64,000 bases of DNA from Methanobacteriota archaeon (lineage in GTDB: Archaea; Thermoplasmatota; Poseidoniia; Poseidoniales; Poseidoniaceae), in the NCBI GenBank assembly GCA_002706065.1, contig PAJM01000020.1:16033-80032 (forward strand), in the 5' to 3' direction. The notes under the pieces are model-generated. The model was not told where the DNA came from, did not search any database, and saw only the letters and a program-made list of their open reading frames with translations. This document shows, in pieces, positions 24,699 through 47,841 of the stretch (its first letter is position 1; every line of letters begins with the position of its first letter). The position numbers and the translations under genes are program-made.

Positions 24699-24707
24699 GT
24701 TGTTCCC

Positions 24708-31088: not shown

Positions 31089-31640
31089 TTGTGCTTTTTT
31101 TCTAAACGGTTCTTCAAATACTCGGTCTCTGCAAGATATAGCGTGACTGGAAGTTTTGACGTGGGTGTGGCTGCGGCAGTAGTCTCAGAATCCCAGATTC
31201 TCTTGGTTCAGGAGGCCAAGGGCCCCTATGCAGGATGCTGGGGTCTGCCCAAAGGCTACGTTGAACCCGATGAATCCATTGAACACGCAGTTCTGCGAGA
31301 GTTGCGAGAAGAAACCAACATCAGCGGTGATATCTCCGGATTCCTCGGCCTACGAACCACCAAAACGCAACGAGGCGTTGGTCTCTTCATCTGCTACAAA
31401 ATTGAACCAACCACATTGGACATCCTTCCACAAGAAGATGAAATAGCCAACGCACAGTTTTTTTCACCTCAGGCTTTTGATCAACTTGAGTGGGTATCTG
31501 CTGCTATGCGTGGATTCGCAGAAGTTGCACTAAAGAACACTCCCCTCCCTCTCATTGACCTCAGCTCAGAATCCAATCGTCCCTACCATCTTGTATTCAG
31601 CGACGGACGTGAGACCCTCTCGGATGAGGTGGTACTGTGA
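31089..31640 (+). CDS. Nudix hydrolase
   Basis: Canonical Nudix box 'GYVEPDESIEHAVLRELREETNI'. The start is uncertain: TTG at 31089 in the track, or an in-frame GTG at 31143 giving 'VTGSFDVGVAAAV'. Its stop overlaps the photolyase GTG (GTGA). Confidence 0.7.
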   Translation: MCFFSKRFFKYSVSARYSVTGSFDVGVAAAVVSESQILLVQEAKGPYAGCWGLPKGYVEPDESIEHAVLRELREETNISGDISGFLGLRTTKTQRGVGLFICYKIEPTTLDILPQEDEIANAQFFSPQAFDQLEWVSAAMRGFAEVALKNTPLPLIDLSSESNRPYHLVFSDGRETLSDEVVL

Positions 31641-33127
31641 TCGACGTTCGCCGAATTGACGCAAACGACAAACCATTGAATCCTGACGGCACGCACGTCG
31701 TCTATTGGATGACCAGTTCACGTAGGGCACGCTGGAATCACGCACTTGATCATGCCATTGAACTTGCTAACGAACACAACGCACCACTGATCGTTGTCGA
31801 ATGCCTGGCATTGGGACATCGATGGGCGAACGATCGTATCCACACCTTCGTCCTTCAAGGCATGATGGACAATCGAAATTTGTTTGAATCAAGTGCAGTC
31901 ACGTACGTACCTTACGTTGAAACCAAAAAAGCACAGGCTGGAGGTTTGTTGAAATCGTTCTCAACAAACGCCATCGCTGTTGTCATCGACGATTTCCCAA
32001 CCTACATGCCTCGTGACGTCGCAAAACGGGCTAAGAAACTGGTTGAATGCTCCGTTCGATCCATCGACAGCAACGGTATTATTCCGTTGCGAGCCCCAGA
32101 ACGCTCTTTCTCAACAGCACACTCGTTCCGTAGATACATCCACCAAAACGTATTGAACTTCATTTCAGACCCTCCGCAATCTGAACCACTGAAGCATTTG
32201 AACGATGTACCAAATGGCAATCACATCGTCGCCCAGTGTTTCGACAGTGTTGATGTACCTCTTACGCCTTTGGAATTCATTTGGAGAGTCTCTGAAGCAT
32301 CACGAGAAGGACGAGAAGCACTTGAAGTTCTCGACATCGACCACGACGTTCCTCCTGTCGACAATCGCCGAGGGGGTTCTGTAACCGCTCGAACGGAATT
32401 GAAGAAATTTATCGAACAGAGACTCGAATCATACCATATTGATCGCAACCATCCTGAACGCCATGGGGGGAGCGGTCTTTCACCATGGCTTCACTATGGT
32501 CACATCTCCTCATACGAGGTTGTGCACGAAGTCTTGGAATCACAACGATGGAACCCAATGAAAATTACACCGCCACACAACGGCCGACGTGCTGGCTGGT
32601 GGGGCATGAGCGAAGGTGCTGAAGCCTTCCTCGACCAAGTAATCACATGGCGAGAACTTGGGTTCATCTACTGTTACGAACATCCCAGCCACACCTCGTA
32701 TCAAACGCTCCCCGAATGGGCCAAGAACACCCTTGAAGAACACTCGAACGATGAGCGTCCATACATCTATACCTTTGAGCAATTGGAAGAAGCCCAAACC
32801 CACGACCCGCTTTGGAATGCAGCACAAATGCAACTCAGAAAAGAAGGAATCATTCACAACTACCTGCGAATGCTATGGGGCAAGAAAGTCCTCGAGTGGT
32901 GCCCTGACCCAGAGACTGCTTGTGAGTGGCTCATCCAACTTAACGATCGATGGGCTCTTGATGGTCGCGATCCAAACTCCTACACAGGAATCTTCTGGAT
33001 TTTCGGTCGATTCGACCGAGGTTGGTTCGAACGATCTGTCTTCGGCAAGGTCCGGTACATGACCTCCGCTTCGACACAACGCAAGTTCAAAACTGAGGAT
33101 TATATACGAAAATACGCAGATTCCTAA
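31637..33127 (+). CDS. phr: class II CPD deoxyribodipyrimidine photolyase
   Basis: 'HDPLWNAAQMQLRKEGIIHNYLRMLWGKKVLEW', 'LNDRWALDGRDPNSYTGIFWIFGRFDRGW' and 'GKVRYMTSASTQRKF' are class II C-terminal signatures. Confidence 0.85.
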   Translation: MIDVRRIDANDKPLNPDGTHVVYWMTSSRRARWNHALDHAIELANEHNAPLIVVECLALGHRWANDRIHTFVLQGMMDNRNLFESSAVTYVPYVETKKAQAGGLLKSFSTNAIAVVIDDFPTYMPRDVAKRAKKLVECSVRSIDSNGIIPLRAPERSFSTAHSFRRYIHQNVLNFISDPPQSEPLKHLNDVPNGNHIVAQCFDSVDVPLTPLEFIWRVSEASREGREALEVLDIDHDVPPVDNRRGGSVTARTELKKFIEQRLESYHIDRNHPERHGGSGLSPWLHYGHISSYEVVHEVLESQRWNPMKITPPHNGRRAGWWGMSEGAEAFLDQVITWRELGFIYCYEHPSHTSYQTLPEWAKNTLEEHSNDERPYIYTFEQLEEAQTHDPLWNAAQMQLRKEGIIHNYLRMLWGKKVLEWCPDPETACEWLIQLNDRWALDGRDPNSYTGIFWIFGRFDRGWFERSVFGKVRYMTSASTQRKFKTEDYIRKYADS

Positions 33128-33132: not shown

Positions 33133-34533
33133 GTGACGCGTATGCCAATCTACGAACACACTGCAACCTTCCCATTCTCACGCGAAACTGTATGGAACTG
33201 GCATGCCCGACCCGGCGCTGTGCGTCGAATCATGCCTGATTGGGAAGGAATCCGACCTGTTGAGGTGGGCGGCATTAAGGACGGCGCAGTCACATCGTTC
33301 AGAATGTCGATAGGAATTGTCCCTCAGAAGTGGGTTGCAAAACATCACAGTTATATCGAGGGTGAACAATTTTGCGATAACATGGTGAAAGGTCCTTTTG
33401 GTCGTTGGAACCACACGCACAAGTTCATCGAAGGTGGTGATACGGAAATGCAGATTGAAGATCGTATCGATTGGAAACTTCCGTTCCACTTTTTCACCCG
33501 AATCGGTGCCCCAGTTATGGTCATGCCTCGCGTACGACAGATGTTCAAACATCGTTCACGTCGAATCCTCGCAGACCTTAACCGACAACAGATGTTCAAA
33601 GAAGCACCGCGTAAGCGTATTCTCATCAGCGGTTCAACGGGCTTGATTGGAACCCAACTTGGTGCCTTCCTCGAAACGGATGGCCATGATGTTCACCGAT
33701 TGATTCGTCCAACGACACGTCTTCATGCTGACCAAGACCCTACAAAGGTTGTCAAATGGGACGATAGAACCGGTGAACTTCTCGAGGGTTCATTCGAAAA
33801 CTTTGATGTCATCATCCACTTAGCAGGGGCTGGAATTGGCGACAAGCGTTGGAGTAAGAAACGAAAGAAGCTCATTGCTGAGAGTCGCGAAATCCCGACA
33901 CGTCATCTCGCCAATACGTTGGCCAGTTTGGAGCATCCACCTTCGCTGTTCATGTGTTCTTCAGCTGTTGGATTTTACGACAATCGCGGTGACGAGGAAC
34001 TTGATGAAAACAGCAGCATCGGTGACGGATTTCTTGCAACAATCTGCAAGAAATGGGAGGATGCAACCCAACCAGCAACAGATGCTGGAATACGGACGAT
34101 TCGAATGCGAACTGGAATTGTTACGACGGCTGCAGGCGGTATGCTTCAGCAAATTCTCTTACCTGCAAAACTCGGCGCAATGGGCCCGATAGGAGGCGGA
34201 CGTCAGTGGCAATCGTGGATTTCATTGGACGATCAAATCTATGCCATCCATTACCTGATGAATCATGATGATGCGAGTGGCGTGGTCAACCTTACTGCAC
34301 CCAATCCGGTGACACAGAAACAATTTGCAAAGACGCTCGGGAAGGTTTTGCGACGGCCTGCTTTTGCTCCTGCTCCAGGCTTTGTGATGAAGATCCTCTT
34401 TGGAGAGATGGGTAAATCGCTCATTCTTGATGGGCAGAAAGTTCACCCTCAGCGATTGTTAGATTTTGGCTACAAATTTGAGCATGAAACCCTTGAATCA
34501 GCGCTTCGCGACGCTTTGGGTCGGTTCAACTAA
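33133..34533 (+). CDS. SRPBCC domain fused to TIGR01777/YfcH-type atypical SDR (epimerase-like, DUF1731)
   Basis: The N-terminal ~150 aa are START/SRPBCC-like ('WNWHARPGAVRRIMPDW'). 'ILISGSTGLIGTQLGAFL' and 'GGGRQWQSWISLDDQIYAIHYLM' follow. The track start is GTG; an alternative ATG lies at 33142. Confidence 0.75.
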   Translation: MTRMPIYEHTATFPFSRETVWNWHARPGAVRRIMPDWEGIRPVEVGGIKDGAVTSFRMSIGIVPQKWVAKHHSYIEGEQFCDNMVKGPFGRWNHTHKFIEGGDTEMQIEDRIDWKLPFHFFTRIGAPVMVMPRVRQMFKHRSRRILADLNRQQMFKEAPRKRILISGSTGLIGTQLGAFLETDGHDVHRLIRPTTRLHADQDPTKVVKWDDRTGELLEGSFENFDVIIHLAGAGIGDKRWSKKRKKLIAESREIPTRHLANTLASLEHPPSLFMCSSAVGFYDNRGDEELDENSSIGDGFLATICKKWEDATQPATDAGIRTIRMRTGIVTTAAGGMLQQILLPAKLGAMGPIGGGRQWQSWISLDDQIYAIHYLMNHDDASGVVNLTAPNPVTQKQFAKTLGKVLRRPAFAPAPGFVMKILFGEMGKSLILDGQKVHPQRLLDFGYKFEHETLESALRDALGRFN

Positions 34534-34573
34534 TCGTCGCTTTATTCTTAACCAGTATGTGTCATGGACAAAC

Positions 34574-37111
34574 ATGCTCGGGCGTAGCATTGCTATTGGC
34601 ATGTTTGCCCTGATGCTGCTTTCAATGGCCCCAGCAGTGCAAGCCGACGATTCGCAGTCCGCATCCAATCTGCTTACAGACGGCGTTTCATCGAACGGGT
34701 ATGTCTGCGATCCTGATGGGTGCTCTCCGAATGATGGGACCGATTGGTGGCGAATTAATGCATACAAGGGTGACATCGTCAGCATCACCTTCTCGGGTTC
34801 AATGAGTAATGCGGCTTGGTGGTGTCCTGGAGATGGCTGGGAAGGCGACTACTCAATGCACGATGAATCAGGTTCTCAAATCGCAACGATGGGCCGAAGC
34901 GATGACAACCCCTCGGGCACACTTTCCAAAACAATGTCACAAGCAGGCTCTGTCTATGTCAAAATCAAAGCAAAGAACTCATGGTGCAACGATGGATTTG
35001 ACTACACATTGTTGGCAGCCATCGACAAAACCGATCGAGATACCGACGAGGACGGCTTTGTGGATTCTGATGATGATTGCGATCTTATCGTTGGAACATC
35101 AACCAATGACCGTAAGGGTTGCATCGATTCGGATTCAGATGGTTGGTCCGATACCGATTCTGGGTGGGACGTCCAAAACGGAGCGGATGCGTTTGAGTCC
35201 GATTCCACACAATGGCGTGACCGAGACTTTGATGGCTACGGCGATAACATTCTCGGCAACCAGCCAGACCACTGCCCAGATAGTCGAGGATACAGTACTT
35301 CAGATCGATATGGTTGCATCGATTCGGATGGAGATTCCTACTCCGATGCAGACCCAGGAGGATTGAATGGGCTGGAGCCTTGGTTTGCCCATCCAGACGG
35401 TTTGGCAGATGCTTTTCCATTCGAAGTGACCCAATGGCAGGATACCGATGGTGACGGCTACGGTGACAACTGGGATGACCCCATGTGGAATCAATCGCAC
35501 GTTGAGTGGGGAATAGGGCAATGGCTCGATGTGGCCTACCAACCAGATGCTTGTCCATTTATTCTTGGCAATTCATTCGCAGACCGATACGGTTGTCCTG
35601 ATGCCGATGGTGATGCGTGGTCAGACCCTGGCGAAAACTGGTCCTCTGCTGAAGGTGCTGACGCATTCCCGTTTGAGCCAACACAGTGGCGAGACCGAGA
35701 TTTTGATGGGTATGGAGACAATCAATCTGAAGGAGCACGCCTCATCGATGATTTCCCAGACAACCCTACCCAATTCAGAGATACGGATGCGGACGGTTGG
35801 GGCGATAACCAAACCTATGGAGCGACTCAGGTCGATGACTTCCCGATTGTTCCAAGCCAATATCGTGATACTGATGGAGACGGTTATGGAGACAATCTCA
35901 GTGGCTTTGAAGGAGACGTTTGTGTTGATTCAAACGCCGAAGAGGTCGAAAGCGGTTGGATTTCAAGATTTGACCGACTTGGTTGCCGAGACGTTGACAA
36001 AGATGGATACTCTGACCCAAGCGACGATTGGATTTCTCATCCACAAGGATTTGCAGATGCTTTCCCGAATGATCCGTCCCAGTGGTACGATACAGACAAC
36101 GACGGATTCGGCGATAATACGGAATATTTCGATGGTCTTGCTTGGCGCCTTGCCTTTAGGGGTGATGGTTGTCGAACAACGTACGGAATGTCGACCTTTG
36201 ACCGATGGGGTTGTCCAGATTCGGATGAAGACGGCTGGTCTGATCCAACACCGTACTGGCTTGCGAGTCCGGGTGGTACGGGCGATGCATGGCCACAAGA
36301 CCCAACTCAATGGCACGATCGAGACGGTGATGGACGAGGAGACAACCCGTCTGGAACCACGGCTGATGTTTGCCCTTCACAGCCGGGGACCTCTGTAGGG
36401 CCAAGTTCAGGAGGGGATCGTTGGGGCTGTCCTGATACCGACGGTGATGGATGGTCGAATCTCGGAGATGCGTTTATTCATGAACCAACCCAATGGCGTG
36501 ATACTGACGGTGATGGATATGGAGACGAAGCGGATGGGAATGAGGCAGATGCATGTCCAACCATTCGTGGAACATCCATTCTTGATCGACTTGGCTGTCG
36601 AGATACCGACGGTGATGGATGGTCGGATCCGACCGATGATTGGGACGCCCATCCCTATGGTTTGGGTGACGCATTCCCTACCGAAGCGTTGCAGTGGAAA
36701 GACAGCGATGGAGATGGATTTGGAGATGTTCCACTTGGAGCACTTCGTGATGATTGCCCCGAGCTTTTTGGTACCTCACTTCGAGACCTGCAAGGTTGTG
36801 AAGACAACAATGGAGATGGGTGGTCCAATGAATATGGAGAATGGAATGCAGCCCTCGCAATCATGGGAGAAGATCCTGCTGCGTCATGGCTGACGTACCT
36901 CATCGTGGGAATTTCGTTCATTCTTGGGGCTTCACTCGCCCTTGTCGCCAGGATGATGCGTCCGGAAGACGAGAAGATGCTCACAGAGGAACTCTTGGGT
37001 ATGGGTGGCGCAGAAAACATTCCTGCAATTCTGCCTGACCCGAATGTCGTAGCATTGCCTGACTTGGCGATACCTCTTCCACCGCCGCCAGGAGGTGACC
37101 AGGATGCGTAA
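34574..37111 (+). CDS. secreted thrombospondin-type-3-repeat (Ca-binding) protein, type I membrane anchored
   Basis: Start moved to 'MLGRSIAIGMFALMLLSMAPAVQADD' (signal peptide); the track start would overlap the previous gene. About 18 DxDxDGxxD loops alternate between 'QW(R/Y/H)DxDxDG(Y/F)GDN' and 'GCxDxDxDGWSDP' types. TM 'LTYLIVGISFILGASLALVA' is followed by RMMR and a Pro-rich tail. Confidence 0.75.
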   Translation: MLGRSIAIGMFALMLLSMAPAVQADDSQSASNLLTDGVSSNGYVCDPDGCSPNDGTDWWRINAYKGDIVSITFSGSMSNAAWWCPGDGWEGDYSMHDESGSQIATMGRSDDNPSGTLSKTMSQAGSVYVKIKAKNSWCNDGFDYTLLAAIDKTDRDTDEDGFVDSDDDCDLIVGTSTNDRKGCIDSDSDGWSDTDSGWDVQNGADAFESDSTQWRDRDFDGYGDNILGNQPDHCPDSRGYSTSDRYGCIDSDGDSYSDADPGGLNGLEPWFAHPDGLADAFPFEVTQWQDTDGDGYGDNWDDPMWNQSHVEWGIGQWLDVAYQPDACPFILGNSFADRYGCPDADGDAWSDPGENWSSAEGADAFPFEPTQWRDRDFDGYGDNQSEGARLIDDFPDNPTQFRDTDADGWGDNQTYGATQVDDFPIVPSQYRDTDGDGYGDNLSGFEGDVCVDSNAEEVESGWISRFDRLGCRDVDKDGYSDPSDDWISHPQGFADAFPNDPSQWYDTDNDGFGDNTEYFDGLAWRLAFRGDGCRTTYGMSTFDRWGCPDSDEDGWSDPTPYWLASPGGTGDAWPQDPTQWHDRDGDGRGDNPSGTTADVCPSQPGTSVGPSSGGDRWGCPDTDGDGWSNLGDAFIHEPTQWRDTDGDGYGDEADGNEADACPTIRGTSILDRLGCRDTDGDGWSDPTDDWDAHPYGLGDAFPTEALQWKDSDGDGFGDVPLGALRDDCPELFGTSLRDLQGCEDNNGDGWSNEYGEWNAALAIMGEDPAASWLTYLIVGISFILGASLALVARMMRPEDEKMLTEELLGMGGAENIPAILPDPNVVALPDLAIPLPPPPGGDQDA

Positions 37112-38390
37112 GCGAACATTCTTCCTTGCTCTCCTCTTCGTCCTCCCTCTTCTTGGAGCGATGAACGTCAGTGCTGAATCGGATATTGGTTTGGAAGAGG
37201 CTGGAATTACGATGGTTGCTCTTCGAAACGATACGCTCGATCTCAACCAAGATGGTGATGTCGATGCAGTTCGCGTAGTGGTCATCCTCAATTCCACAAT
37301 CGAGTCAACCATTGTTGATGTGCGCTTAATCGCGACACACAATGATCGAGAGGTGGTCGAATCGACGACAATTGAAATCGTTGGACAAACCAATGCAAGT
37401 CTGACCTACGATGCATGGTCGCGAGGCTCCCATGATCTCGTACTCGGATTTTATGACATGAATGGTGCTGAAATTTCATCAATCACGTTGCTGACGTACG
37501 AAATGGTTCCTGCCTTGCAAACACCGATGCTATCGCTTCAATTCATTGGTCAAAACAATCTACAAACCGGTTCAAATTGTGAAATAAACCGTATGTTTGC
37601 AGATGAGACAGGTCCTCGTTACGGGGCGTTGGGTACGCTTACGTTTACCGGCGCACCGTTCATCGTATTGGACAACGCCACCAATATTGATTGTTCAGGT
37701 TGGCCAGCAGGAGAATATTCGCTACGTGAGACCTATCGCAACGAACTTGGACAGACTGCTGAAACATCGTTGAATCTCACCATCGAAAATCGACCTGCTC
37801 CGACCTTCGAGTTGGTTGTCAATGGAGATGGACAAACAACCGATCGGTCCTGCTTAATTGCAATTCAGCCGACCAATCCGAATGAAGACTTTGCGCCATA
37901 CACGAAAGAATGGGATGTCTCGACCACCTCTACGATTACTGAGGGAGCGGTCTACGATTGTTCCAGCCTTCCTGCAGGTGTTCACCTCGTCGTGCTCAAA
38001 GTAACCAATTTGGAGAACATTGCGAGTACGCAAGCGGTCAACATCGTTCGATTACCAGCCGCCGAGTTGTCCGCAGAAGAACAAGAAGCACTCCCAAGTC
38101 AATCCTTTGGCGAAGAAACTGAAACAGAAGCTGTAGGCTGGTACACCATTTCTGTTCTGGGGTTGATCGTTGGCATCGTTGCGTTCGTTCTTTTGGTTCG
38201 AATCCGTGAGGACGACGAACTTCTGACGTTACCGGAACTCGGACCAGCACCACAGATTCTCAACGATGGTTCACCCGATTCTGAAGGATTACCGACGATT
38301 GTTGATGATGAAGGCCAATTGTGGCGTAAGCATCCTGACGGTTCGCTTGACTGGTGGGATACGACCTACAACATTTGGCAACGATGGTGA
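37104..38390 (+). CDS. type I membrane glycoprotein-like protein, SD-coupled to the TSP3-repeat gene
   Basis: GGAGGTGA lies 5 nt upstream of ATG 37104, and there is an 8-nt overlap with the upstream stop. Signal peptide 'FFLALLFVLPLLGAMNVSAES', many N-x-S/T sequons, TM 'WYTISVLGLIVGIVAFVLLV', and a Trp-rich tail 'LWRKHPDGSLDWWDTTYNIWQRW'. Confidence 0.55.
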   Translation: MRKRTFFLALLFVLPLLGAMNVSAESDIGLEEAGITMVALRNDTLDLNQDGDVDAVRVVVILNSTIESTIVDVRLIATHNDREVVESTTIEIVGQTNASLTYDAWSRGSHDLVLGFYDMNGAEISSITLLTYEMVPALQTPMLSLQFIGQNNLQTGSNCEINRMFADETGPRYGALGTLTFTGAPFIVLDNATNIDCSGWPAGEYSLRETYRNELGQTAETSLNLTIENRPAPTFELVVNGDGQTTDRSCLIAIQPTNPNEDFAPYTKEWDVSTTSTITEGAVYDCSSLPAGVHLVVLKVTNLENIASTQAVNIVRLPAAELSAEEQEALPSQSFGEETETEAVGWYTISVLGLIVGIVAFVLLVRIREDDELLTLPELGPAPQILNDGSPDSEGLPTIVDDEGQLWRKHPDGSLDWWDTTYNIWQRW

Positions 38391-39268
38391 ATGCGATGCC
38401 TGATTGGATGTTGTACGTACTTCTCGCACTGGCTGGAATCCTTGTTCTGTTGGTTCTCAATGGGATATGGATCTGGTGGACTCGAGTTCGCCCACGGCAG
38501 CCGAAGTTGCATGCAGATTGGGCTGCGGACTGTGAGCATACGCCGTCCGCCGTGTTCAATGACTCACTCATCACCTTCCGAAACGTTCGAGATTTCCACT
38601 GGCGTACGACGAAAGATCGAGATGAGAAATGGGCTGATGAAGTCAAGGTTGATTCATCCAAAGTTAAGCACATTTGGTTTATTGTGGACCAATTCCATTC
38701 CTTCAGGGGGATGTCACATACGTACCTCACGTTCGAATTTTCAGATGGAACATGTCTCTCATTCTCTTTTGAAACTCGACGTGAGCGGGGAAAAAGATAC
38801 CATCCATGGACGGGCTTATGGCGGTCGTATGAGATGTATTTGCTCGTAGGTTTCGAGCGAGATGTGACCCAGTTACGAACGCATGCACGAAACAACATTG
38901 TCTCGATGTATCGTGTAATCACACCTCCAGATAAAGAACGGCAAATGATCGTTCAAATGGCCCATCGTTTGAACCAATTAGCCGACCGTCCTGAATTCTA
39001 TCACACTCTCTTCAAGACCTGCAACACGTCAATTGTAAAGGCAGTCAACACAGTTACGCCAGGAAGAATCCCATTCCTTTGGCGTAATTTCCTACCCGGT
39101 TATACGCCCAAGGCAGCATTGAAATTGAATTTGATTGAGAATTGGGGTGGGTTGGATGCAACCATGGAGCGCGCTCGAATTGATATACATGCAAAAGAAT
39201 GGGATGGAGAGAGTGATTATAGTGCATTCATCCGGTCTGGGTTACCCCCCTCACCCTTGGACGAGTAA
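38384..39268 (+). CDS. DUF4105-like membrane-anchored protein (conserved His/Cys)
   Basis: ATGGTGA overlap with the upstream stop. N-terminal TM 'WMLYVLLALAGILVLLVLNGIWIWW'. 'GMSHTYLTFEFSDG' and 'FYHTLFKTCNTSIV' resemble the conserved His and NC(T) motifs of DUF4105. This is from memory and tentative. Confidence 0.45.
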   Translation: MVNAMPDWMLYVLLALAGILVLLVLNGIWIWWTRVRPRQPKLHADWAADCEHTPSAVFNDSLITFRNVRDFHWRTTKDRDEKWADEVKVDSSKVKHIWFIVDQFHSFRGMSHTYLTFEFSDGTCLSFSFETRRERGKRYHPWTGLWRSYEMYLLVGFERDVTQLRTHARNNIVSMYRVITPPDKERQMIVQMAHRLNQLADRPEFYHTLFKTCNTSIVKAVNTVTPGRIPFLWRNFLPGYTPKAALKLNLIENWGGLDATMERARIDIHAKEWDGESDYSAFIRSGLPPSPLDE

Positions 39269-39874: not shown

Positions 39875-39953
39875 GTACGCTCCATAGAGGGCTAATTCTT
39901 GACATCATGGGTTGTCTCGAATCGATCAGAAAGAACTCAGAGGCTGACAATGG

Positions 39954-39959
39954 TTTAGA
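39954..39959 (+). promoter_or_regulatory. TATA-like box (TTTAGA) for the giant FG-GAP/TSP3 gene, embedded in a 7-bp inverted repeat
   Basis: TTTAGA is centred about 26 nt upstream of ATG 39983. TTAGAAC(39955-61)-gttgagt-GTTCTAA(39969-75) is a perfect palindrome overlapping it. Confidence 0.35.
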
Positions 39960-39982
39960 ACGTTGAGTGTTCTAAGAAGTTC

Positions 39983-42900
39983 ATGCGCGGGCGGCGGATG
40001 CTTTTCAAATCGGTTCTCGCAACCGGACTTGTTCTGCTTATGCTGGTCCAATTGATGGCTCCAATTGCCTCTCAATCGATGACCAGTACACCTGTTTTGG
40101 CGGATGAATCGGTCATCGAATACACACTTCCAACCAATCTTGAGCACGGTCATGACCTCGCAGGTCAAACCATCGACATTGAAGGAATGACCGAACTGCT
40201 CGTACGGCCAGATTCCTCCATTGACATGTGGATGAGTGAGGTGCTTGTTTCTGGTACAGCTGGTGAGTTGAGCCCACCGAGTGTTTATGTTGCAGAGAAT
40301 GGCTCAAGTTACGTTTGTTGGATGAATGCGCAAGGTGAGGTTCGAATGGGAACTTACACATCAACAGGAGTCTTCTCCGAATCGATCATCGATACTGTCG
40401 ATACTTCGTTGGGAATCATTGGTTGTTCCGTAGTCGTCGATTCGTCCTATCGTCCGCTGGCGATTTATGGAGATGGAGCAAATTTGTCAATGGCTCGATT
40501 TGCGTTCCAAGGACAGGTCTACTCATCAGATACATGGTTGAAACGAACCATCATCGAGGATTTCTATCCGGATTCAATGGTTGTTCGATTGACCGATACT
40601 GGGAACGAATTTGCTGTAGTTAGGACGACTTCAGGAGAATTGTGGCAGGTCAACAACAGCGGATTACGTTGGGACAGCAGTTTACTTGACAGCGGGCCTG
40701 TGGGACAAGAGGTTGAACTGAAAATGGATGCAAATGGTGTTGCAAACATTGCTTACACACGAACCGGTGAAGCCGTCCGTTTGCAAGTTGATGGAAGTCA
40801 AATCACTGAACAAATACTTGCCCGAGAAGCATCTCTCCATACCGCAATTGGTCTTGATTTGGACATCAACGGACTTGCGCAAGTAGCAACAACATCATTT
40901 GCCGATGATCAAACAGGACTTTCAATCTTCAAGAGTTTGGAAGATCAATCCACAGGTCGCCTCTCCAGTCAAGCAATGAGCACCTACGAGCTCTATCCTG
41001 ATGTAGCAGAAGGTTCCGCTTCCTACGGTGATTTGAATTCTGATGGGTTTGACGATGTTGTCTTCACACAACCCGCAGCCTCAGATAGCGGATTGAACAA
41101 CAACGGGCGAGTAGTAGTGCTTTTCGGAGGCGCTGACGGTCTTGCATCATCGACTCCTGTTGTGCTCAGTGGATCACAAACGGCAGAACGCTACGGTCAA
41201 GGCATTGCAATTGGTGAGTTTTTGTCGAATGGAAACATGCAATTGCTCTTGTCTTCGCCCGGTTATGACAACACGAGCAGAGTGGATGAATTCAACCACG
41301 GTCTTCTATCATTGTACGAATGGAATCAAACTCAGTTTGATTTGATCTGGAGCATGATTGGGAACAACGAAGAGATGCTGGGTGAGGATGTTTCACTCAT
41401 CGATGATATGAACGGAGATGGATTCGATGACCTCGTTGCCTTACAAGGCAACTGGACCGATGGTGCATTGAACGGGCGCCTTTCTGTATTCCAAGGTTCG
41501 ACCGACGGTTTGACTTGGTCACACAACATCACTGCTTCGACCTCTGGACCGTTCTATGGTCGGGCAATGTCAAGTGGGGGCGATCTCAACGGAGATGGAT
41601 ATGGAGACTTTGTTGTCTCAAACTCTGGTGATGAAGACTCACCTGTCGGTTTCTCTGCAATCGAACTGTTCTATGGATCATCGAACGGTTTCTCTTTGAC
41701 ACCCGATCAAAGCATTCAACGGCTTGGACAAGGGACTCTACTTGGAAACGTTGTTGAGATCGTTGATGACATCAACAACGATGGTATGGACGAACTTCTG
41801 GTACAGGAATTCTCAGCACCAAATTCTCCACTGTACAGTGGTACAGTCCATCTTTTCATGGGCAATACGTCTGAAAACTTCAGTGAGACTCCAGATTGGA
41901 CGAGTCAAGGGACTGGAAATCAACGATTCGGATGGATGTTTGCGACTGCTGGAGACGTGAACGATGATGGCTACATGGATACATTCATTGGTTCTGGAAT
42001 GGCATACACTCCTTCAGGCCAAATCGATCTATACCTCGGTTCACAGAACGGATTCGTTCCAGCGGTTGAAACCATTCGCACAGGTGCACCTACTGTTCAC
42101 CTCGGTCTCGTCACTGTTGGTGGATTCGATTCGAATGCTGATGGAGCAATCGAGTTTGTCTATTCAACCAGAAACGCCACTCGAGGTACGTCCTACGGCA
42201 TTGACATGGTCACGGTAAGCAAGCAAGATTTCGATACGAGTCAATTTACCTTCGATGGGAAAATGTCGGGATTGAAACTGACGACATCGGATCGTGGTGA
42301 GACTGCAATGATGTTCTCACTCAACGCCTCTGCATCACATTCACTTGTTCATCTTGAACATGTCGAGGACGGTTCACCAGGTGGTTCATGGGTCGCCGAT
42401 ACCTTGGCTACATCACCCTCTCCATTCCAATTCCAGTTCGACGTGACACCTTCTGGTCAACCCGAGCTGGTTGTCTTGGAAGAGGGAACAGGTTACGTTC
42501 ACCATTCCACAACCTCTTGGACTTCGCTGCATCAGGAGATTCGTACGTTCAATGACTTTGGAACATATCCCGCCTCAGCAATCGATTCGAATGGTGATTT
42601 ACACATCATCTATTCGCACAACACGATTGAGAAGTTGTACTATTCGACCGAGGATTCGAGTGGCTCAGGCGGATGGGATACCAATGAAATCCTGTCCAAT
42701 TCAAATCTGACATCATCCCCAACCGTTTGGTTCGAAGGTGCAGACATGCACGTGCTCTATCGCGATGCGAATCTCGACAAGATTGAACATCTGATCAAAT
42801 CCGGAAGCAGTTGGTCTACGGCCACTGAGCTGGATTCAGGGCTTGCTGTCGGAAAGGAACACGTTGCGCTCCAACTTTCGAACGGTACGACCTTGGTTGC

Positions 42901-45900
42901 AACAACCGTCAACAACTCTGGTATTCATGAATTGCAGATTGTGGACATTGACCACGATGTTTCAACACCATTGAGGAACCTCAGTGATGGAACAGCTGAA
43001 TTGTCGATGTGCATGGATTCAAGCAATACAATTGTTCTGCTCTCTCTTGATTCCAATGGTATTCTCGTGACACACGAACGAAACGCTACAACGGAATTGT
43101 GGACGAACGTTTCAATGCAGCAACTTGGTCTAACCAACGGTCAGACCGATGGTTATGATTTGGCCTGTACTCAGCACGGCTCGTCGCTGATCTTTGCTGT
43201 GCAAGCATCGGTGAATGCGTTGCATGAGCGCAACAGTACGGGCGCGTGGTCATCGTTTGGTGGCCATCCGACGTCCTCTGAAGGCGGTGCTTGGCAACTT
43301 GTTTCCAACGGTCCAGGAGTCATACTGATGACGACAACACCTGGGACTGACACACTCAACATCAATACGATGCATCTCGACGGTCGGTCCGAAGACCGCT
43401 CAGTCTGGTCGTCGCATGAAATGAAGAATGTCTATACAAACGCCAATTTCTCGGCAAATCTCGACTCCAACGGAACGATTGTCATCGGATATTTTGATTC
43501 TCAAGACTTGGATGTTGAAATGCTTCGACTCTACTCAGACTCCGATCGCGATCTCATCTTCGATCGCCTCGATGCCATGCCGAACGTTGGAGAGCAATGG
43601 GCCGACACCGACTTGGACGGGTTCGGCGATAATCCGACAGGACCATTATCGGACGATTGCCCCGCAGATTCAGGAATTTCTTACTTCTTCATTCAAGGTT
43701 GTGACGATTATGAACACGATGGTTTTGCAGACACAATCGATGCCTGCGATACCTATGACGGACGTTCGGTGTTCGATCGATATGGCTGTCCAGATTTCGA
43801 TGAGGATGGCTGGTCGAACAACGATGGTAATTGGATTCATGGAGACCGATTCCAGCAAAACTGGAAGCAGTCGAAAGACAGTGATGGCGACGGAGTCGGT
43901 GACAACTATGGTGTTGATTGCTGCAATGCAATGTTTGGCTTATCAGGGGCCTATGAGTACAGTCCTGGTGACAAATTCCCCAACAATCCACGTCAGTTCA
44001 AGGATTTCGATGATGACGGATACGGTGACAATGAATCGGATTTGTTGACCGGAGATTTTTGTCCATGGGATTATGGAACCTCATATCGTGACCGAAACGG
44101 TTGTCTTGACTCAGATGGTGATGGTGCGAGCGACCCTTCCAGCATTGGTGGCATCAATTGGGGTGTTCAGCAAGGGGCTGACATGTGGCCGAATGACCCC
44201 ACGCAATGGGCTGATACGGACGGTGACGGGTACGGTGACAACGGAACCATTGGTGCAACAAACCCAGATTTCTTCCCCTACAACATTGCAGCAGCTGATG
44301 ACAACGACAGCGATGGTTATCCTGATCGCTGGACTTCATCGTACAACGGTAGCAATGGCCAGGGTCTCATTCTCGATGGATGTCCTAGCGTGTACGGAAC
44401 CTCAATCAATCCGTTACCGGGTTGCCCCGATAGCGATGGTGATGGATGGGCCAATACGGACGATGACTTCCCACTCGACCCAACACAATTCCTCGACAAT
44501 GATGGTGATGGGTTTGGCGATAATGCTGATGGTAACAACCCTGATGAATGTCCGTTCCAGTTCGGTGTTGAAAATGGAACGGACGGCAACGGTTGCCCGC
44601 TCGTGAATACCGACGATACCGACGGCGATGGCGTTTACGATGAAGTGGATGTGTGTCCAAACTCCCCTTCCTTTGCAACTGTGGATGCAGATGGTTGTGC
44701 TGATTCACAACTTGACGACGATGCCGATGGAGTTTCCAACGCCGAAGATGCGTGTCCCGAAACACAAGCCTCAGCAGAGGTCGATTCGAGTGGGTGCAGC
44801 GATGAACAACTCGTCCAAGACAGCGATGGTGATGGCGTCGTCGACATTGACGACCTTTGCCCAGAATCATCCTTGACTGTCGATGCAAACGGCTGTGATG
44901 AAAACCAACGCGACTCCGATGGTGATGGCGTTGTGGACGGTGCACCTGATTTGTGTCCGAACACCGAGGCAGGCTTCCCCGTTGATTCAACTGGTTGTGT
45001 TGATGAGAGTGCTCTTGACCAAGATCTCGATGGCGATGGTTATCTTGGTGAGTATACCTTTGATATCGACAGTGAAACGGGATTGAGGATCAATGAGGCT
45101 GGAGATGCCTTCCCTCTCGATGGCACGCAATGGTACGATCAAGACGGTGACGGCTTCGGTGATAACCCGATGGGTAACAATGCTGACTTTTGCCCCGAGG
45201 AAACTGGGACATCCTACCTTGATGCCATAGAAATTGGGTGCGAAGATGACGGTGACGGTTGGGCTGATAATTGGGGTAGGGATAAATTCCCTGGCGATGC
45301 CACACAATGGAATGATTCAGATGGAGATGGCTACGGAGACAATTGGGGTGATGAGGCTTGGAATGAATCAAGAGATTCTACATGGCCAGGAGATTTCGTC
45401 GTGGGTGCGTCAACTCCCGATAAGTGTCCAAACTCACCTACAACCAACGTTGACGATGAAGGTTGCTCGAAGAGCGAGCGAGATACGGACGAAGACGGTG
45501 TCAACGACTTATTGGACAACTGTCCAGAACAACCGAAGGGTCCTGATGGATTCGATGATGGTTGTCCATTACCGAAATCCGAAACCGATGATGAAGGAAC
45601 TATGATTCTGGGTATGACCCTTCCTGTATTTGGTGGCGTACTTGCAGGTGGAATCGTAGCATTGCTGGTGCTAGTAATCGTGATTGGCCGACTCCGAAAT
45701 CGAGGCTATGACTTTGATGATGACGATGACGATGAGGATTTCTTTGATGATGATGACGATGAAGATGACTTCTTCTCCTCATTCCAGAGCAAACCGATGC
45801 CTTCGCGTTCGACTCCATTACCGTCGGCTGGACCTTCAGGTGGCCCTCCGGGTGGTTCACCGTCGCGTGGACCATCAGGTCCGAAACGTGGCCCTCCTGG

Positions 45901-46219
45901 CCGTGGTCCACCAGGTGGGTCAATGCCGCCTCGTTCTAGTCCTGCCTCACCGAGGGCGCCTGTTGAACAATCTGTCAAGTCTGACGACGCTGATCAACCA
46001 TCTCCACAAAAGAAGGTCCGTCGTGCACGGATTGAAGTCGACCTTTCACTGTTTGAAGACTGGCAAAACGAAGATCGAGATGCTGCAGTTGACTGGGTCG
46101 TAGGTGAACTTTCCGATGGTGGACAAGAACGTACACTGCTCATGCAGTTGCAAGGAACTGGTTGGTCTGCCCAGCAATCAAGAGCGATTTATGACATGGC
46201 TCGTAACCAACAATCGTAG
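39983..46219 (+). CDS. 2,078-aa type I membrane protein: N-terminal beta-rich region, 7 FG-GAP (integrin-alpha-like) repeats, second propeller-like region, ~19 thrombospondin type-3 repeats, TM, 176-aa cytoplasmic tail
   Basis: Signal peptide 'LFKSVLATGLVLLMLVQLMAPIAS'. FG-GAP loops: 'YGDLNSDGFDDVV', 'IDDMNGDGFDDLV', 'GGDLNGDGYGDFVV', 'VDDINNDGMDELLV', 'AGDVNDDGYMDTFI' and 'GGFDSNADGAIEFV' (aa ~340-740, nt ~41000-42200). TSP3 loops such as 'DSDGDGVVDIDDLCP' span aa ~1185-1865 (nt ~43535-45577). TM 'GGVLAGGIVALLVLVIVIG' (nt ~45605-45688) is followed by RLRNR. Confidence 0.8.
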   Translation: MRGRRMLFKSVLATGLVLLMLVQLMAPIASQSMTSTPVLADESVIEYTLPTNLEHGHDLAGQTIDIEGMTELLVRPDSSIDMWMSEVLVSGTAGELSPPSVYVAENGSSYVCWMNAQGEVRMGTYTSTGVFSESIIDTVDTSLGIIGCSVVVDSSYRPLAIYGDGANLSMARFAFQGQVYSSDTWLKRTIIEDFYPDSMVVRLTDTGNEFAVVRTTSGELWQVNNSGLRWDSSLLDSGPVGQEVELKMDANGVANIAYTRTGEAVRLQVDGSQITEQILAREASLHTAIGLDLDINGLAQVATTSFADDQTGLSIFKSLEDQSTGRLSSQAMSTYELYPDVAEGSASYGDLNSDGFDDVVFTQPAASDSGLNNNGRVVVLFGGADGLASSTPVVLSGSQTAERYGQGIAIGEFLSNGNMQLLLSSPGYDNTSRVDEFNHGLLSLYEWNQTQFDLIWSMIGNNEEMLGEDVSLIDDMNGDGFDDLVALQGNWTDGALNGRLSVFQGSTDGLTWSHNITASTSGPFYGRAMSSGGDLNGDGYGDFVVSNSGDEDSPVGFSAIELFYGSSNGFSLTPDQSIQRLGQGTLLGNVVEIVDDINNDGMDELLVQEFSAPNSPLYSGTVHLFMGNTSENFSETPDWTSQGTGNQRFGWMFATAGDVNDDGYMDTFIGSGMAYTPSGQIDLYLGSQNGFVPAVETIRTGAPTVHLGLVTVGGFDSNADGAIEFVYSTRNATRGTSYGIDMVTVSKQDFDTSQFTFDGKMSGLKLTTSDRGETAMMFSLNASASHSLVHLEHVEDGSPGGSWVADTLATSPSPFQFQFDVTPSGQPELVVLEEGTGYVHHSTTSWTSLHQEIRTFNDFGTYPASAIDSNGDLHIIYSHNTIEKLYYSTEDSSGSGGWDTNEILSNSNLTSSPTVWFEGADMHVLYRDANLDKIEHLIKSGSSWSTATELDSGLAVGKEHVALQLSNGTTLVATTVNNSGIHELQIVDIDHDVSTPLRNLSDGTAELSMCMDSSNTIVLLSLDSNGILVTHERNATTELWTNVSMQQLGLTNGQTDGYDLACTQHGSSLIFAVQASVNALHERNSTGAWSSFGGHPTSSEGGAWQLVSNGPGVILMTTTPGTDTLNINTMHLDGRSEDRSVWSSHEMKNVYTNANFSANLDSNGTIVIGYFDSQDLDVEMLRLYSDSDRDLIFDRLDAMPNVGEQWADTDLDGFGDNPTGPLSDDCPADSGISYFFIQGCDDYEHDGFADTIDACDTYDGRSVFDRYGCPDFDEDGWSNNDGNWIHGDRFQQNWKQSKDSDGDGVGDNYGVDCCNAMFGLSGAYEYSPGDKFPNNPRQFKDFDDDGYGDNESDLLTGDFCPWDYGTSYRDRNGCLDSDGDGASDPSSIGGINWGVQQGADMWPNDPTQWADTDGDGYGDNGTIGATNPDFFPYNIAAADDNDSDGYPDRWTSSYNGSNGQGLILDGCPSVYGTSINPLPGCPDSDGDGWANTDDDFPLDPTQFLDNDGDGFGDNADGNNPDECPFQFGVENGTDGNGCPLVNTDDTDGDGVYDEVDVCPNSPSFATVDADGCADSQLDDDADGVSNAEDACPETQASAEVDSSGCSDEQLVQDSDGDGVVDIDDLCPESSLTVDANGCDENQRDSDGDGVVDGAPDLCPNTEAGFPVDSTGCVDESALDQDLDGDGYLGEYTFDIDSETGLRINEAGDAFPLDGTQWYDQDGDGFGDNPMGNNADFCPEETGTSYLDAIEIGCEDDGDGWADNWGRDKFPGDATQWNDSDGDGYGDNWGDEAWNESRDSTWPGDFVVGASTPDKCPNSPTTNVDDEGCSKSERDTDEDGVNDLLDNCPEQPKGPDGFDDGCPLPKSETDDEGTMILGMTLPVFGGVLAGGIVALLVLVIVIGRLRNRGYDFDDDDDDEDFFDDDDDEDDFFSSFQSKPMPSRSTPLPSAGPSGGPPGGSPSRGPSGPKRGPPGRGPPGGSMPPRSSPASPRAPVEQSVKSDDADQPSPQKKVRRARIEVDLSLFEDWQNEDRDAAVDWVVGELSDGGQERTLLMQLQGTGWSAQQSRAIYDMARNQQS

Positions 46220-46275: not shown

Positions 46276-47841
46276 ATGTCGGATGGCGTACCAGAAGGAG
46301 CAACACTTCCCGAGGGTATAGAGGTCGATGACGCAGCGGCATATTTTGGTGCAGTTGACTCTTCTGACGTCCTTCAACAAATGATGTCAATGGAGCCGAA
46401 ACTGGCGCTTTCAAAAGCCCTTGAACACCTTGCCGACATCATCCTACGACCTGGTGAGTTCGACTTCGAAGCAGCAAGCGAACGATTGCAGTGCGAAGGT
46501 GGAGAGATTTACTTCCTCATCTTTGGACATCTAAACCTGATGGCTCTGCCCGATCCATTGTTGCAATTTGCTGGTCAATCAGACTCGACTGGGGCAGCTA
46601 ACACTGCGCATCCACTCGCGACTGCCGAAGTCATACAAGCGCTAACTCCGCTGTTTGACCCAATGCAATTTCTGAAAATCTTAGCCATTGCATATGCAAC
46701 CGGAGGCAACACGGAGGTCGATCAATATCTTCAGTCAATTGAGGATGTAATGTCAAATCCTTCGGGCAATCTTGAGAAGATGCAGTCGATGGCTGAGGAA
46801 CTCAACAGTTCGCTTGATGTAGCTGGTCATGCTCTTCCGATGCCCCTATTTGCAAGTGAACAAGCCCAACCTGCGGAAATCGAGATGGGCGCGGTTATCG
46901 AGCGAAAAGAACCCGAACCGACTCCTGTACCCGAGCCTGTTCTCCAATCTCCTACGCCTGAACCAGAGGTTGAGTCAGTACCGCTACCAACCGAATCAGT
47001 ACCATTACCAACCGAATCAGCTTCAATTCCAAACGAATCCGTCCCTCTCCCTGCCACAGACTCTGTCCCACTCCCAAATCAAGGTGAACCCATCGAGGAA
47101 GTCGGATTCAAGAATGAAGTCGAAGTTGATCACGCGGCTCAAGATGCATTCGCTGGCGCTTTCGGCTCTCAATTGGTTCCAGAACCTCAAATTGCTCCAG
47201 AACCAGTCGAAGATGTTGAGGAAGCAATTCCTGAGCCAACCCCCGAACCACCCGAACAGATTCAGGAACCAGTCGAAGAAACGGTTCCCGAACCCATACC
47301 ACCGACTGTGGACCTACCTGAAGAAGAGTGGGTAAGTGATGCCGAACGGTTCATTGCAGCCGATGTTGATGATTCAGGTAGCCTCTCTGTCGAAGAATTA
47401 GCAGTTGCTGCGAATGTATCCATGGAAGAAGCCGAAGAACTTCACAATGCTGCGGATACTGATGGCGACGGTGAAGTCTCGCTCTCAGAATTTGTTTCCT
47501 CAGAAGCTGCACAAAAGATGTCCACATTGCCGCGTCCTGTCGCTCCTATTCGCAAACCAATACAATCACAACCACCACCTCAACAACCCCAGCAGCCGCG
47601 TCAACAACCAACTTCTCCTGGTGTTGCAGCCCCACAGATGGGTTGGCAGCAACAACCACAACAACAGCCAATACAGCAGCAACCAGTGATGCGACAACAG
47701 CCAATGCCACAACAACCAACAATGAACATCCAGCCAACAATCCGTTCCGGTATTCACTGTCGTGGATGTGGAATTGGCCTCGACCCAAATTGGCGTTACT
47801 GTCCAGTGTGCGGAAACATGAACATGAGCGCACATCGCTAA
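46276..47841 (+). CDS. cytoplasmic EF-hand pair / Pro-Glu-rich / Gln-Pro-rich protein with C-terminal zinc ribbon
   Basis: GGAGGG (46264-46269) lies 6 nt upstream of ATG 46276, and there is no signal peptide. EF loops 'DVDDSGSLSVEE' and 'DTDGDGEVSLSE'. 'QSQPPPQQPQQPRQQP...QQQPQQQPIQQQPVMRQQPMPQQP'. CxxC-x10-CxxC 'CRGCGIGLDPNWRYCPVCG'. Confidence 0.6.
   Translation: MSDGVPEGATLPEGIEVDDAAAYFGAVDSSDVLQQMMSMEPKLALSKALEHLADIILRPGEFDFEAASERLQCEGGEIYFLIFGHLNLMALPDPLLQFAGQSDSTGAANTAHPLATAEVIQALTPLFDPMQFLKILAIAYATGGNTEVDQYLQSIEDVMSNPSGNLEKMQSMAEELNSSLDVAGHALPMPLFASEQAQPAEIEMGAVIERKEPEPTPVPEPVLQSPTPEPEVESVPLPTESVPLPTESASIPNESVPLPATDSVPLPNQGEPIEEVGFKNEVEVDHAAQDAFAGAFGSQLVPEPQIAPEPVEDVEEAIPEPTPEPPEQIQEPVEETVPEPIPPTVDLPEEEWVSDAERFIAADVDDSGSLSVEELAVAANVSMEEAEELHNAADTDGDGEVSLSEFVSSEAAQKMSTLPRPVAPIRKPIQSQPPPQQPQQPRQQPTSPGVAAPQMGWQQQPQQQPIQQQPVMRQQPMPQQPTMNIQPTIRSGIHCRGCGIGLDPNWRYCPVCGNMNMSAHR
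46972..47079 (+). repeat. five degenerate tandem 21-bp (one 24-bp) coding repeats (E/D-S-V-P-L-P-x)
   Basis: gagtcagtaccgctaccaacc / gaatcagtaccattaccaacc / gaatcagcttcaattccaaac / gaatccgtccctctccctgccaca / gactctgtcccactcccaaat. Confidence 0.75.

Follow-up and report, generated by a model that had tools for sequence, protein, structure and literature searches.

A conserved Poseidoniales surface protein with three predicted beta-propellers on a calcium-binding stalk

A 64,000-nt stretch of contig PAJM01000020.1 from a Poseidoniaceae archaeon (assembly GCA_002706065.1, positions 16,033 to 80,032; hereafter the window) encodes a protein of 2,078 amino acids (aa) that a first-pass annotation, made from the sequence alone, read as an integrin-alpha-like FG-GAP propeller fused to thrombospondin type-3 (TSP3) repeats and proposed as the core of a cell-adhesion system. 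Is this a real archaeal gene, what is its product built from, and what might that product do at the cell surface? Our analysis identifies the product as a real, membrane-anchored surface protein with three beta-propellers on a calcium-binding stalk. Its parts are the following (pLDDT, predicted local distance difference test, is the AlphaFold confidence score):

39983..46219 (+), the complete open reading frame (ORF): 2,078 aa, ATG start, uninterrupted in the ORF listing and translation
39983..40072 (+), signal peptide, aa 1-30, with a basic n-region (MRGRR), a hydrophobic core (h-region aa 6-30) and 'APIASQS'
40100..40987 (+), N-terminal propeller-type module, aa 40-335, all-beta in the AlphaFold model with about 20-21 strands, pLDDT mostly 80-90
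40988..42226 (+), FG-GAP (integrin-alpha-type) beta-propeller, aa 336-748, 28 strands in 7 blades
42227..43537 (+), third propeller-type module, aa 749-1185, all-beta in the AlphaFold model with about 35 strands, a blade periodicity of about 46 aa and recurring G-x-W
43538..45592 (+), Ca-loop stalk, aa 1186-1870 (685 aa), about 19 Dx[DN]xDG loops, 20.7% Asp
44615..45037 (+), canonical prokaryotic TSP3 core, aa ~1545-1685, 'DxDGDGVxDxxDxCPxTxxGxxVDxxGC'
45614..45688 (+), single transmembrane helix, aa ~1878-1902 in the hydrophobicity scan, AlphaFold helix at aa 1880-1905
45710..45775 (+), juxtamembrane acidic patch, aa 1910-1931, 'DFDDDDDDEDFFDDDDDEDDFF', kept in all orthologue tails aligned
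45776..46009 (+), Pro/Gly/Ser/Arg-rich linker of variable length with 'PSRGPPG'-type repeats and many insertions and deletions (indels), pLDDT 26-36
46010..46219 (+), C-terminal cytoplasmic domain and stop codon, aa 2010-2078, predicted three-helix bundle

A hydrophobicity scan of the translated ORF detected just two strongly hydrophobic stretches, at aa 6-30 and aa ~1874-1906. The first lies in the signal peptide, which is kept in orthologues and has a pLDDT below 50, as expected for a leader that is cleaved. Since this N-terminal signal peptide is combined with a second hydrophobic stretch that is modelled as a helix, the product is a type I membrane protein with an ectodomain of about 1,840 aa, one transmembrane helix and a tail of about 176 aa. 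Both the scan and the AlphaFold helix thereby bear out the single membrane span and the 176-aa cytoplasmic tail of the first-pass annotation, whose quoted peptide motifs were also all recovered at their positions in the translation. A twin-arginine translocation (Tat) signal was considered for 'RRMLFK' and rejected, as the motif after the arginine pair is not conserved in orthologues; a Sec-type leader was therefore assumed. The ectodomain is acidic (isoelectric point ∼4.05) and modestly enriched in N-x-S/T sequons, with 27 compared with 18.7 ± 3.9 in shuffled sequences; 16 of the 27 are conserved at ≥80%.

The likeness to integrins concerns the central module. FG-GAP loops are located at aa 350, 413 (degenerate), 475, 534, 596, 658 and 716, spaced 58-63 aa apart, in full agreement with the six clear units and one degenerate unit counted initially. 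The six blades other than blade 2 have an intact DxNxDGxxD calcium hairpin, blade 2 is degenerate in all family members, and the loop residues are invariant among 35 sequences (the window protein and 34 orthologues, which also served for the family profile used in the PDB search and for the AlphaFold alignment). Two Pfam models score above their cut-offs, FG-GAP_3 with 38.2 bits over five stretches (cut-off 26.9) and FG-GAP with 24.1 bits over four (cut-off 22.1), and the family profile retrieved the propellers of integrins alpha5, alphaV, alpha6 and alphaIIb from the PDB at E-values of 4e-17 to 1e-13. Within the AlphaFold model, which covers aa 35-1195 at a mean pLDDT of 80.2, DSSP assigned exactly 28 strands to aa 333-747, equivalent to seven four-stranded blades. 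The comparison with integrin headpieces that had been proposed as a check also came out in favor of the assignment: Foldseek aligned the model to the integrin alpha5 headpiece 9ckv_A with a target-normalised template modelling (TM) score of 0.69, a root-mean-square deviation (rmsd) of 5.3 Å and 17% identity. The best-fitting integrin matches (target-normalised TM scores of 0.67-0.70) were propeller-only alpha5 chains of about 440-450 residues; whole-ectodomain integrin chains aligned over more columns, but with an rmsd of 20-34 Å. As modelled, the central module is a seven-bladed FG-GAP propeller of the integrin-alpha type.

On either side of this propeller, the model predicts another one, so that the head consists of three propeller modules, not two. 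The first-pass annotation had suggested the one after the FG-GAP module and missed the one at aa 40-335. Between aa 78 and 1186, the model consists of beta structure throughout, and the two flanking modules appear related to each other (hhalign probability 82.6%, E 1e-5 for aa 40-335 against aa 749-1185), while profile-profile comparison related neither to the FG-GAP blades. Using the same type of comparison, aa 749-1185 self-aligned at a shift of 46 aa with a probability of 75%. For the whole head model, the top Foldseek matches were the triple-propeller proteins DDB1, CPSF160 and SF3B3 and the multi-propeller protein LRP2 (E ∼1e-15); global TM scores to these multi-propeller proteins were low, as expected with differing inter-domain angles. 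The ∼83-84 predicted strands would correspond to about 21 blades, a number compatible with two arrangements, 5+7+9 or, if the FG-GAP propeller is an insertion, a DDB1-like 7+7+7.

The flanking modules resemble little else by sequence. Neither has a Pfam match, BNR included, even at E ≤10, and the family profiles of both yielded zero matches to PDB sequences at E ≤10. The strands from which a second propeller at aa 750-1180 had been deduced are indeed present as G-x-W motifs, and the region is all-beta in the AlphaFold model; its BNR type found no support from hidden Markov models (HMMs). We rejected a BNR/Asp-box propeller for aa 749-1185 because there was no BNR match at E ≤10 (E ≤1 for the whole protein) and the repeats share only the loose G-x-W pattern. 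This third module is the most divergent part of the protein (18-34% identity in distant orthologues), and its profile retrieved just six fragments, and no relatives outside the family, from an index of 5.8 billion proteins. By query identity or bit score, all six resemble pieces of this same family; one is named as a Thermoplasmatota VCBS repeat protein.

What carries the head is a stalk rich in calcium loops. A regular expression (Dx[DN]x[DNE][GA]) counted 17 loops at aa 1208-1834, and two near-matches, D-Y-E-H-D-G (aa ~1242) and E-D-D-G-D-G (aa ~1754), raise the number to about 19, the figure proposed originally. The paired cysteines described with these loops were found as well: 26 of the 30 Cys of the protein lie in the stalk, forming 12 C-x12-15-C pairs plus one vicinal CC, and they are conserved at 95-100% in 43 orthologues. 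The designation as a TSP3 array holds in part. Pfam TSP_3 (PF02412) reached 23.7 bits over four stretches (E 3.8e-5), under its cut-off of 25, and is precomputed for 5 of the 43 orthologues; NCBIfam gave partial, far-sub-threshold matches to the TSP3 regions of MtsC and TraB and to PA1041-type anchors. The TSP3 segment of Capnocytophaga gingivalis OmpA (PDB 5wtl), in turn, matched by profile (E 3e-9) and by Foldseek (E 4.7e-5, 33% identity); it was the sole significant Foldseek match for the C-terminal half of the protein and is its only solved relative. About four to six of the loops are canonical TSP_3, in the core at aa ~1545-1685 and in a further repeat at aa ~1834, whereas the other loops follow the variant 'P-x-x-x-T-Q-W-x-D-x-D-G-D-G-x-G-D-N' with C-x12-15-C, which Pfam TSP_3 does not recognise. 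For the first ∼350 aa of the stalk (aa 1186-1536), no Pfam match was obtained even at E ≤10.

AlphaFold modelled the stalk as coil, essentially without regular secondary structure, and the TSP3 core is the only part modelled confidently (pLDDT 70-82). Metal-wrapped TSP3 wires that are modelled without ions show no regular secondary structure. The combination of stalk and transmembrane helix recurs on other Poseidoniales surface proteins, namely that of ORF 34466-37111 in the window and the proteins P0044, P0045 and P0048. In all of these, a transmembrane helix comes after an array of 'QWxDxDGDGYGDN' and TSP3 loops, but the heads are different (PPC-like or unknown domains among them) and the tails are short and lack the three-helix domain described below. 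Because it occurs with such different heads, the stalk is a lineage-typical membrane-proximal module.

Behind the membrane, the orthologue tails share a basic stop-transfer segment, the acidic patch, the variable linker and an end domain of about 70 aa. The latter has the motif 'KKVRxA..FEDWQ..AVDWV..ERxxLMQLQxxGWxAxQSRAI' with 23 columns invariant among orthologues, and AlphaFold places its helices at aa 2026-2044, 2049-2059 and 2063-2077 (pLDDT 67-85). The tail has no Pfam match even at E ≤10, and the three-helix domain is too small for a Foldseek match. An exhaustive search of 1.84 billion representative proteins with an HMM of the domain returned 56 matches. In those of about 2,000-2,130 aa, the domain forms the very C-terminus; six fragments were read and proved to be tails or C-terminal halves from this family, and the remaining short matches, which were not individually read, align at or near their own C-terminus. 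Judged by this search, the domain is specific to the family. The alternative of a module common to other surface proteins was dismissed on the same grounds, with the exception of P0118, an unrelated membrane protein of 311 aa whose three tandem helical motifs ('WV..L..G.S.EEI..QL.E.GYT..Q') are loosely similar to the tail domain. Its sequence hints at a wider, undescribed family of small helical repeats. We do not claim a UBA-like nature of the tail helices ('LMQLQxxGWSxxQSRAI'): weak, sub-threshold UBA/HTH-type matches were obtained on P0118 and none on the tail.

Could the architecture be an artefact, that is, an assembly chimera or frame error that fused unrelated genes? The survey of relatives makes this next to impossible, and nothing was found in its favour. 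A protein search identified 43 full-length orthologue cluster representatives from independent assemblies (37-99% identity, 2,048-2,203 aa), the named ones belonging to Candidatus Poseidoniaceae or 'Euryarchaeota archaeon UBA443', and the guanine-cytosine content is even along 39983..46219. In a scan of one genome per GTDB species, about 60 loci had a relative (26-76% identity, mostly spanning the three-propeller head), of which all but one were titled archaeal (Poseidoniales, Poseidonia or generic Methanobacteriota, Thermoplasmatota or Euryarchaeota). They include CM001443, titled as an isolate MG-II (Marine Group II) chromosome, which we take to be the assembly of Iverson et al. (2012). Outside Poseidoniales, the species scan matched only the FG-GAP part, in diverse bacteria. 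The same module order is present in about 50-55 species-level Poseidoniales genomes, so that orthologues of identical architecture exist throughout the order.

These orthologous loci have an ORF of 2,048-2,237 aa from stop to stop, with 21-28 loops and about 30 Cys. The transmembrane helix occupies the same relative position in about 50 of them and lies 157-224 aa from the C-terminal end in all but two complete loci, and the tail HMM matched in nearly every complete locus. Even in the most distant orthologues, region lengths are nearly unchanged, with almost no indels. Identity in these distant orthologues is 47-59% for the stalk, the best-conserved part of the protein, 28-38% for the FG-GAP propeller and 14-35% for the other two modules. 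Two loci that seemed to be relatives from outside the order Poseidoniales (L068 and L072) were both truncated orthologues. Judging from these sequences, architecture, length and neighbours of the gene are fixed across Poseidoniales.

How does the protein relate to known systems? The integrin alpha headpiece (alpha5, alphaV; PDB 9ckv, 4wjk, 1jv2) is likewise part of a type I protein and has a seven-bladed FG-GAP propeller with DxNxDGxxD hairpins. In integrin alpha, however, the propeller is N-terminal, whereas here it is internal, between two further propeller modules, and integrins have three or four calcium sites compared with six of seven blades here. A calcium site in nearly every blade is the bacterial FG-GAP pattern (Chouhan et al. 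2011, PMC3192720), and the calcium-site distribution of the central propeller is therefore bacterial, not metazoan. We rejected an identity as integrin alpha: thigh and calf domains are absent, the propeller being followed by another propeller module and the Ca-loop stalk, and the tail begins with 'RLRNRGYDFDDDDDD', without a GFFKR or KxGFFxR motif. Nor did any of the ∼42 ORFs of the window contain a VWA or integrin-beta domain. Bacterial FG-GAP/VCBS proteins likewise have seven repeats with the calcium motif in nearly every blade (PMC3192720; PMC8023676), and the closest sequence relatives of aa ~315-750 outside Poseidoniales are bacterial proteins. The bacterial examples of Chouhan et al. 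(PMC3192720) lack the transmembrane helix found here, and many bacterial FG-GAP proteins are long arrays of near-identical repeats (for example, that of locus L069), in contrast to a single differentiated propeller in a fixed multidomain protein.

The stalk was compared in the same way. The TSP3 repeats of C. gingivalis OmpA, Myxococcus TraB and MtsC and PA1041-type anchors match aa ~1545-1685 and ~1834, and these proteins stand in a cell-envelope or cell-cell cohesion context. In these Gram-negative envelope proteins, a few repeats accompany OmpA or MYXO-CTERM modules, compared with about 19 loops in a membrane-proximal stalk of 685 aa here. Thrombospondin/COMP has a similarly long, contiguous run of Dx[DN]xDG loops that are interspersed with disulfides and lack regular secondary structure, but differs from the intra-repeat C-x12-15-C pattern of our protein. 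An assignment to thrombospondin/COMP was discarded, as EGF repeats and a C-terminal L-lectin-like domain are absent (no Pfam match to EGF or TSP_C) and the stalk leads directly into the transmembrane helix. The first-pass annotation had seen a mimic of metazoan adhesion receptors: the domain superfamilies are indeed shared, but the features that define integrin alpha and thrombospondin are absent. LINKIN/ITFG1, a metazoan type I protein with seven atypical FG-GAP repeats (PMC4275582), is likewise a single-pass protein with an FG-GAP ectodomain, no integrin beta partner and a proposed adhesion role. It is much smaller, without extra propellers or a Ca-loop stalk, and has an unrelated tail. A PGF-CTERM archaeosortase substrate was rejected as well, given the 176 residues after the transmembrane helix and the lack of an NCBIfam PGF_CTERM match.

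The neighbouring genes include the following four:

34466..37111 (+), upstream stalk paralogue: 881-aa type I protein with 17 Ca loops, a transmembrane helix and a short tail, syntenic in most loci
37095-38390 (+), single-pass protein of 431 aa without a Pfam match
38354-39268 (+), Lnb_N (PF13387) membrane protein
46276..47841 (+), downstream EF-hand/zinc-ribbon gene: 521 aa, cytoplasmic, without a transmembrane helix

The full gene order, from the 881-aa stalk paralogue, the 431-aa membrane protein, Lnb_N and thiamine pyrophosphokinase (opposite strand) through our gene to the ∼520-aa EF-hand/zinc-ribbon protein, an M29-like peptidase (opposite strand) and an M32 peptidase, is kept down to 26-37% identity. 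Of 61 orthologous loci, 53 have a homologue of the downstream gene directly behind the surface-protein gene, and most of the remaining loci break off ahead of that position. Its ATG (46276) lies 56 nt past the stop codon, with a Shine-Dalgarno-like GGAGG 8 nt ahead, and from this arrangement the two genes are probably co-transcribed. The downstream protein starts with an N-terminal domain of about 200 aa that has no Pfam match, followed by a P/E-rich linker ('SVPLPTES' repeats), an EF-hand pair (Pfam EF-hand_7 at 3.6e-8), a Q/P-rich segment and a C-terminal zinc ribbon (weak Zn-ribbon matches). Its 521 homologue clusters are all Poseidoniales or Thermoplasmatota where named, including Poseidoniaceae and Thalassarchaeaceae. 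A TATA-like 'TTTAGA' is located about 25 nt upstream of the ATG of the surface-protein gene, and no Shine-Dalgarno motif was seen in the interval 39950-39982; this sequence context suggests a leaderless or short-leader transcript for the gene pair.

Upstream, ORFs 34466-37111, 37095-38390 and 38354-39268 overlap on the same strand, are syntenic over most of the order and may form a surface-protein operon. The stalk paralogue aligned with aa 1196-1853 of our protein in BLASTP (E 1e-53); its loops are organised in a super-repeat of two loops and one disulfide, and its real start is likely near 34574.

Does the protein serve in adhesion, then? Based on its sequence and predicted structure, the most likely reading, for which we consider the chances evenly balanced, is a constitutive, calcium-dependent surface receptor or adhesin. 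In seawater (∼10 mM Ca2+), the stalk loops would be loaded with metal, which would make the stalk stiff, protease-resistant and highly acidic and allow it to hold the propeller head off the membrane. The propeller faces, the fastest-evolving parts, could then bind an external ligand, candidates being polymers on particles or phytoplankton, neighbouring cells and other envelope proteins. Inside the cell, the conserved tail domain would serve as the docking site of a partner protein, for which the adjacent EF-hand/zinc-ribbon protein is the obvious candidate. An adhesin agrees with the view of Rinke et al. (2019; PMC6461757), who listed widespread 'thrombospondin genes' in Poseidoniales as evidence of adhesion without describing this protein, and the nearest NCBIfam partial matches, MtsC and TraB, are myxobacterial cell-cell cohesion and exchange proteins. 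Several observations weigh against it. Classical adhesins vary in repeat number and are patchily distributed, unlike this family, which has a single architecture of invariant length in every sufficiently long orthologous locus examined. Part of the high identity of the stalk is due to its biased D/G composition. Synteny is generally high in Poseidoniales and unrelated housekeeping genes (thiamine pyrophosphokinase, M32 peptidase) are equally syntenic, so that the position of the EF-hand gene next to ours speaks only weakly for a functional link. Adhesion or particle attachment is what we infer; with its architecture fixed throughout the order, the protein would be no less in keeping with a core component of the envelope or a core receptor than with a classical variable adhesin.

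The main rival, which we regard as rather unlikely, is a structural protein of the cell envelope, such as a surface-layer (S-layer) subunit, an S-layer anchor or a 'canopy' protein, in which the propellers would provide lateral lattice contacts, the calcium stalk would act as a periplasm-like spacer and the tail would fix the coat to the interior. Order-wide presence and an invariant domain order and length with almost no indels are in line with such a role. Haloferax-type S-layer glycoproteins are acidic, sequon-rich and anchored by a transmembrane helix, as is this protein, and calcium-dependent assembly is common in S-layers; in addition, glycosylation genes and many other surface proteins are encoded in the same window. 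Nevertheless, a cytoplasmic tail of 176 aa that includes a folded, conserved domain is atypical of S-layer proteins, Pfam, NCBIfam and PDB profile searches revealed no similarity to known S-layer families, and the window holds other large candidates, for example a 1,569-aa beta-helix/PKD protein. A bidirectional, integrin-like signalling receptor, in which binding by the head is relayed through the membrane to the tail domain and the EF-hand/zinc-ribbon protein by Ca2+-modulated outside-in or inside-out coupling, seems distinctly less plausible. It would account for a family-specific tail domain whose conservation equals that of the ectodomain, for the conserved juxtamembrane acidic patch and for the operon-like, co-conserved EF-hand gene, but the integrin hallmarks (GFFKR, thigh, calf) are missing, the window has no beta-subunit or VWA gene, and the general synteny of the order again weakens the argument from adjacency. 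By analogy, one could imagine a transmembrane coupling device of Poseidoniales that is integrin-analogous and homologous to integrins in the propeller only, with tail and acidic patch recruiting the EF-hand/zinc-ribbon protein, and with binding to particles, algae or cells linked to a Ca2+-sensitive response inside the cell; we hold this to be a doubtful, speculative proposal.

A carbohydrate-active enzyme with one catalytic propeller, finally, is highly improbable. The idea derives from an 80%-identical orthologue (P0004) that is recorded as 'Alpha-agarase' in NCBI/nr, and some propellers are glycosidases or lyases. A review also mentions an agarase-like gene in MGIIb (PMC4602124). Against this, Pfam and NCBIfam detected no glycoside hydrolase or lyase family, the two unassigned propeller modules have no PDB sequence match, and the only agarase-like region is the TSP3 array, a non-catalytic calcium-binding module. 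We rejected alpha-agarase as an identity on the basis of the missing glycoside hydrolase family and a likeness confined to TSP3-type loops, the agarase sequence itself not being compared. Alpha-agarases (AgaA) also carry TSP3 repeats, and these would explain the name most simply as a likely repeat-driven misannotation.

How new is the protein? The first-pass annotation had called its layout no standard archaeal architecture, which overstates the case: a signal peptide combined with a C-terminal transmembrane anchor is common, and six other ORFs of the window have it, one of which also shares the Ca-loop stalk. Prokaryotic surface proteins with FG-GAP propellers and with TSP3 loops are already known. 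The proposed 'undescribed' system must be qualified too, given that thrombospondin genes have been cited for adhesion (PMC6461757), although the protein itself is not described there. Literature searches on MGII together with FG-GAP, thrombospondin, S-layer, metaproteome or agarase returned generic mentions only and no description of this protein. What we did not find described in the searchable literature is the fixed architecture, the two unmatched propeller modules, the family-specific cytoplasmic domain and the co-conserved EF-hand/zinc-ribbon neighbour.

The Poseidoniales, or Marine Group II archaea, belong to the most abundant archaea of the plankton and have no cultured representative. 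An order-wide surface protein of invariant length (about 2,100 aa) with a highly conserved stalk would offer a handle for antibodies or affinity reagents to sort and image MGII cells, could help to interpret densities in cryo-electron tomography and provides a way to test whether MGII attach to particles and phytoplankton, as has long been supposed. The labels 'alpha-agarase' and 'agarase-like' appear to rest on calcium-binding repeats, and their correction matters for metabolic inference. If the link between tail and EF-hand protein is true, it would represent a novel type of transmembrane coupling in archaea; if it is false, the protein would be an ordinary, unusually conserved modular surface glycoprotein of known prokaryotic domain kinds.

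The window encodes further surface proteins. At 13816-18525 (+), a type I protein of 1,569 aa combines PKD domains with a right-handed beta-helix and is a further candidate for a major envelope protein; a counterpart of 1,591 aa lies upstream in the distant orthologous locus L001. The 643-aa ORF at 62066-63997 (-) is extremely acidic (33.7% D+E), has an EF-hand besides its three LDL-receptor class A repeats (Pfam E 1.9e-15), and ends in a PGF-CTERM-like 'PGFTGIVGMLALLGAAFIRRNE' (TIGR04126 17.2 bits, cut-off 24.5), which suggests an archaeosortase substrate with 'metazoan-type' Ca/Cys modules. Related to it in BLASTP (E 6e-13) is a 789-aa type I protein at 18535-20904 (+), with 23.4% D+E and LDL-receptor-class-A-like Cys repeats (Ldl_recept_a 23.4 bits, just below the cut-off). 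A type I protein of 1,019 aa at 6166-9225 (+), without a match in Pfam or NCBIfam, has a poly-Lys stop-transfer segment ('RRRRKKKKKKR') followed by a tail of about 65 aa.

Genes at 217-4051 and 21840-22628 encode a GT2-like protein, a CAP59-type mannosyltransferase, an NAD-dependent epimerase, a DegT-type aminotransferase and a further GT2; these glycosylation-type genes may supply glycans for the nearby sequon-rich surface proteins. At 22664-26315 (-) are genes for a phytoene/squalene synthase, an ABA4-like membrane protein and an amine-oxidase-type desaturase, and a photolyase-like gene is located at 31637-33127. The carotenoid-type and photolyase-like genes fit a light-exposed, rhodopsin-using lifestyle.

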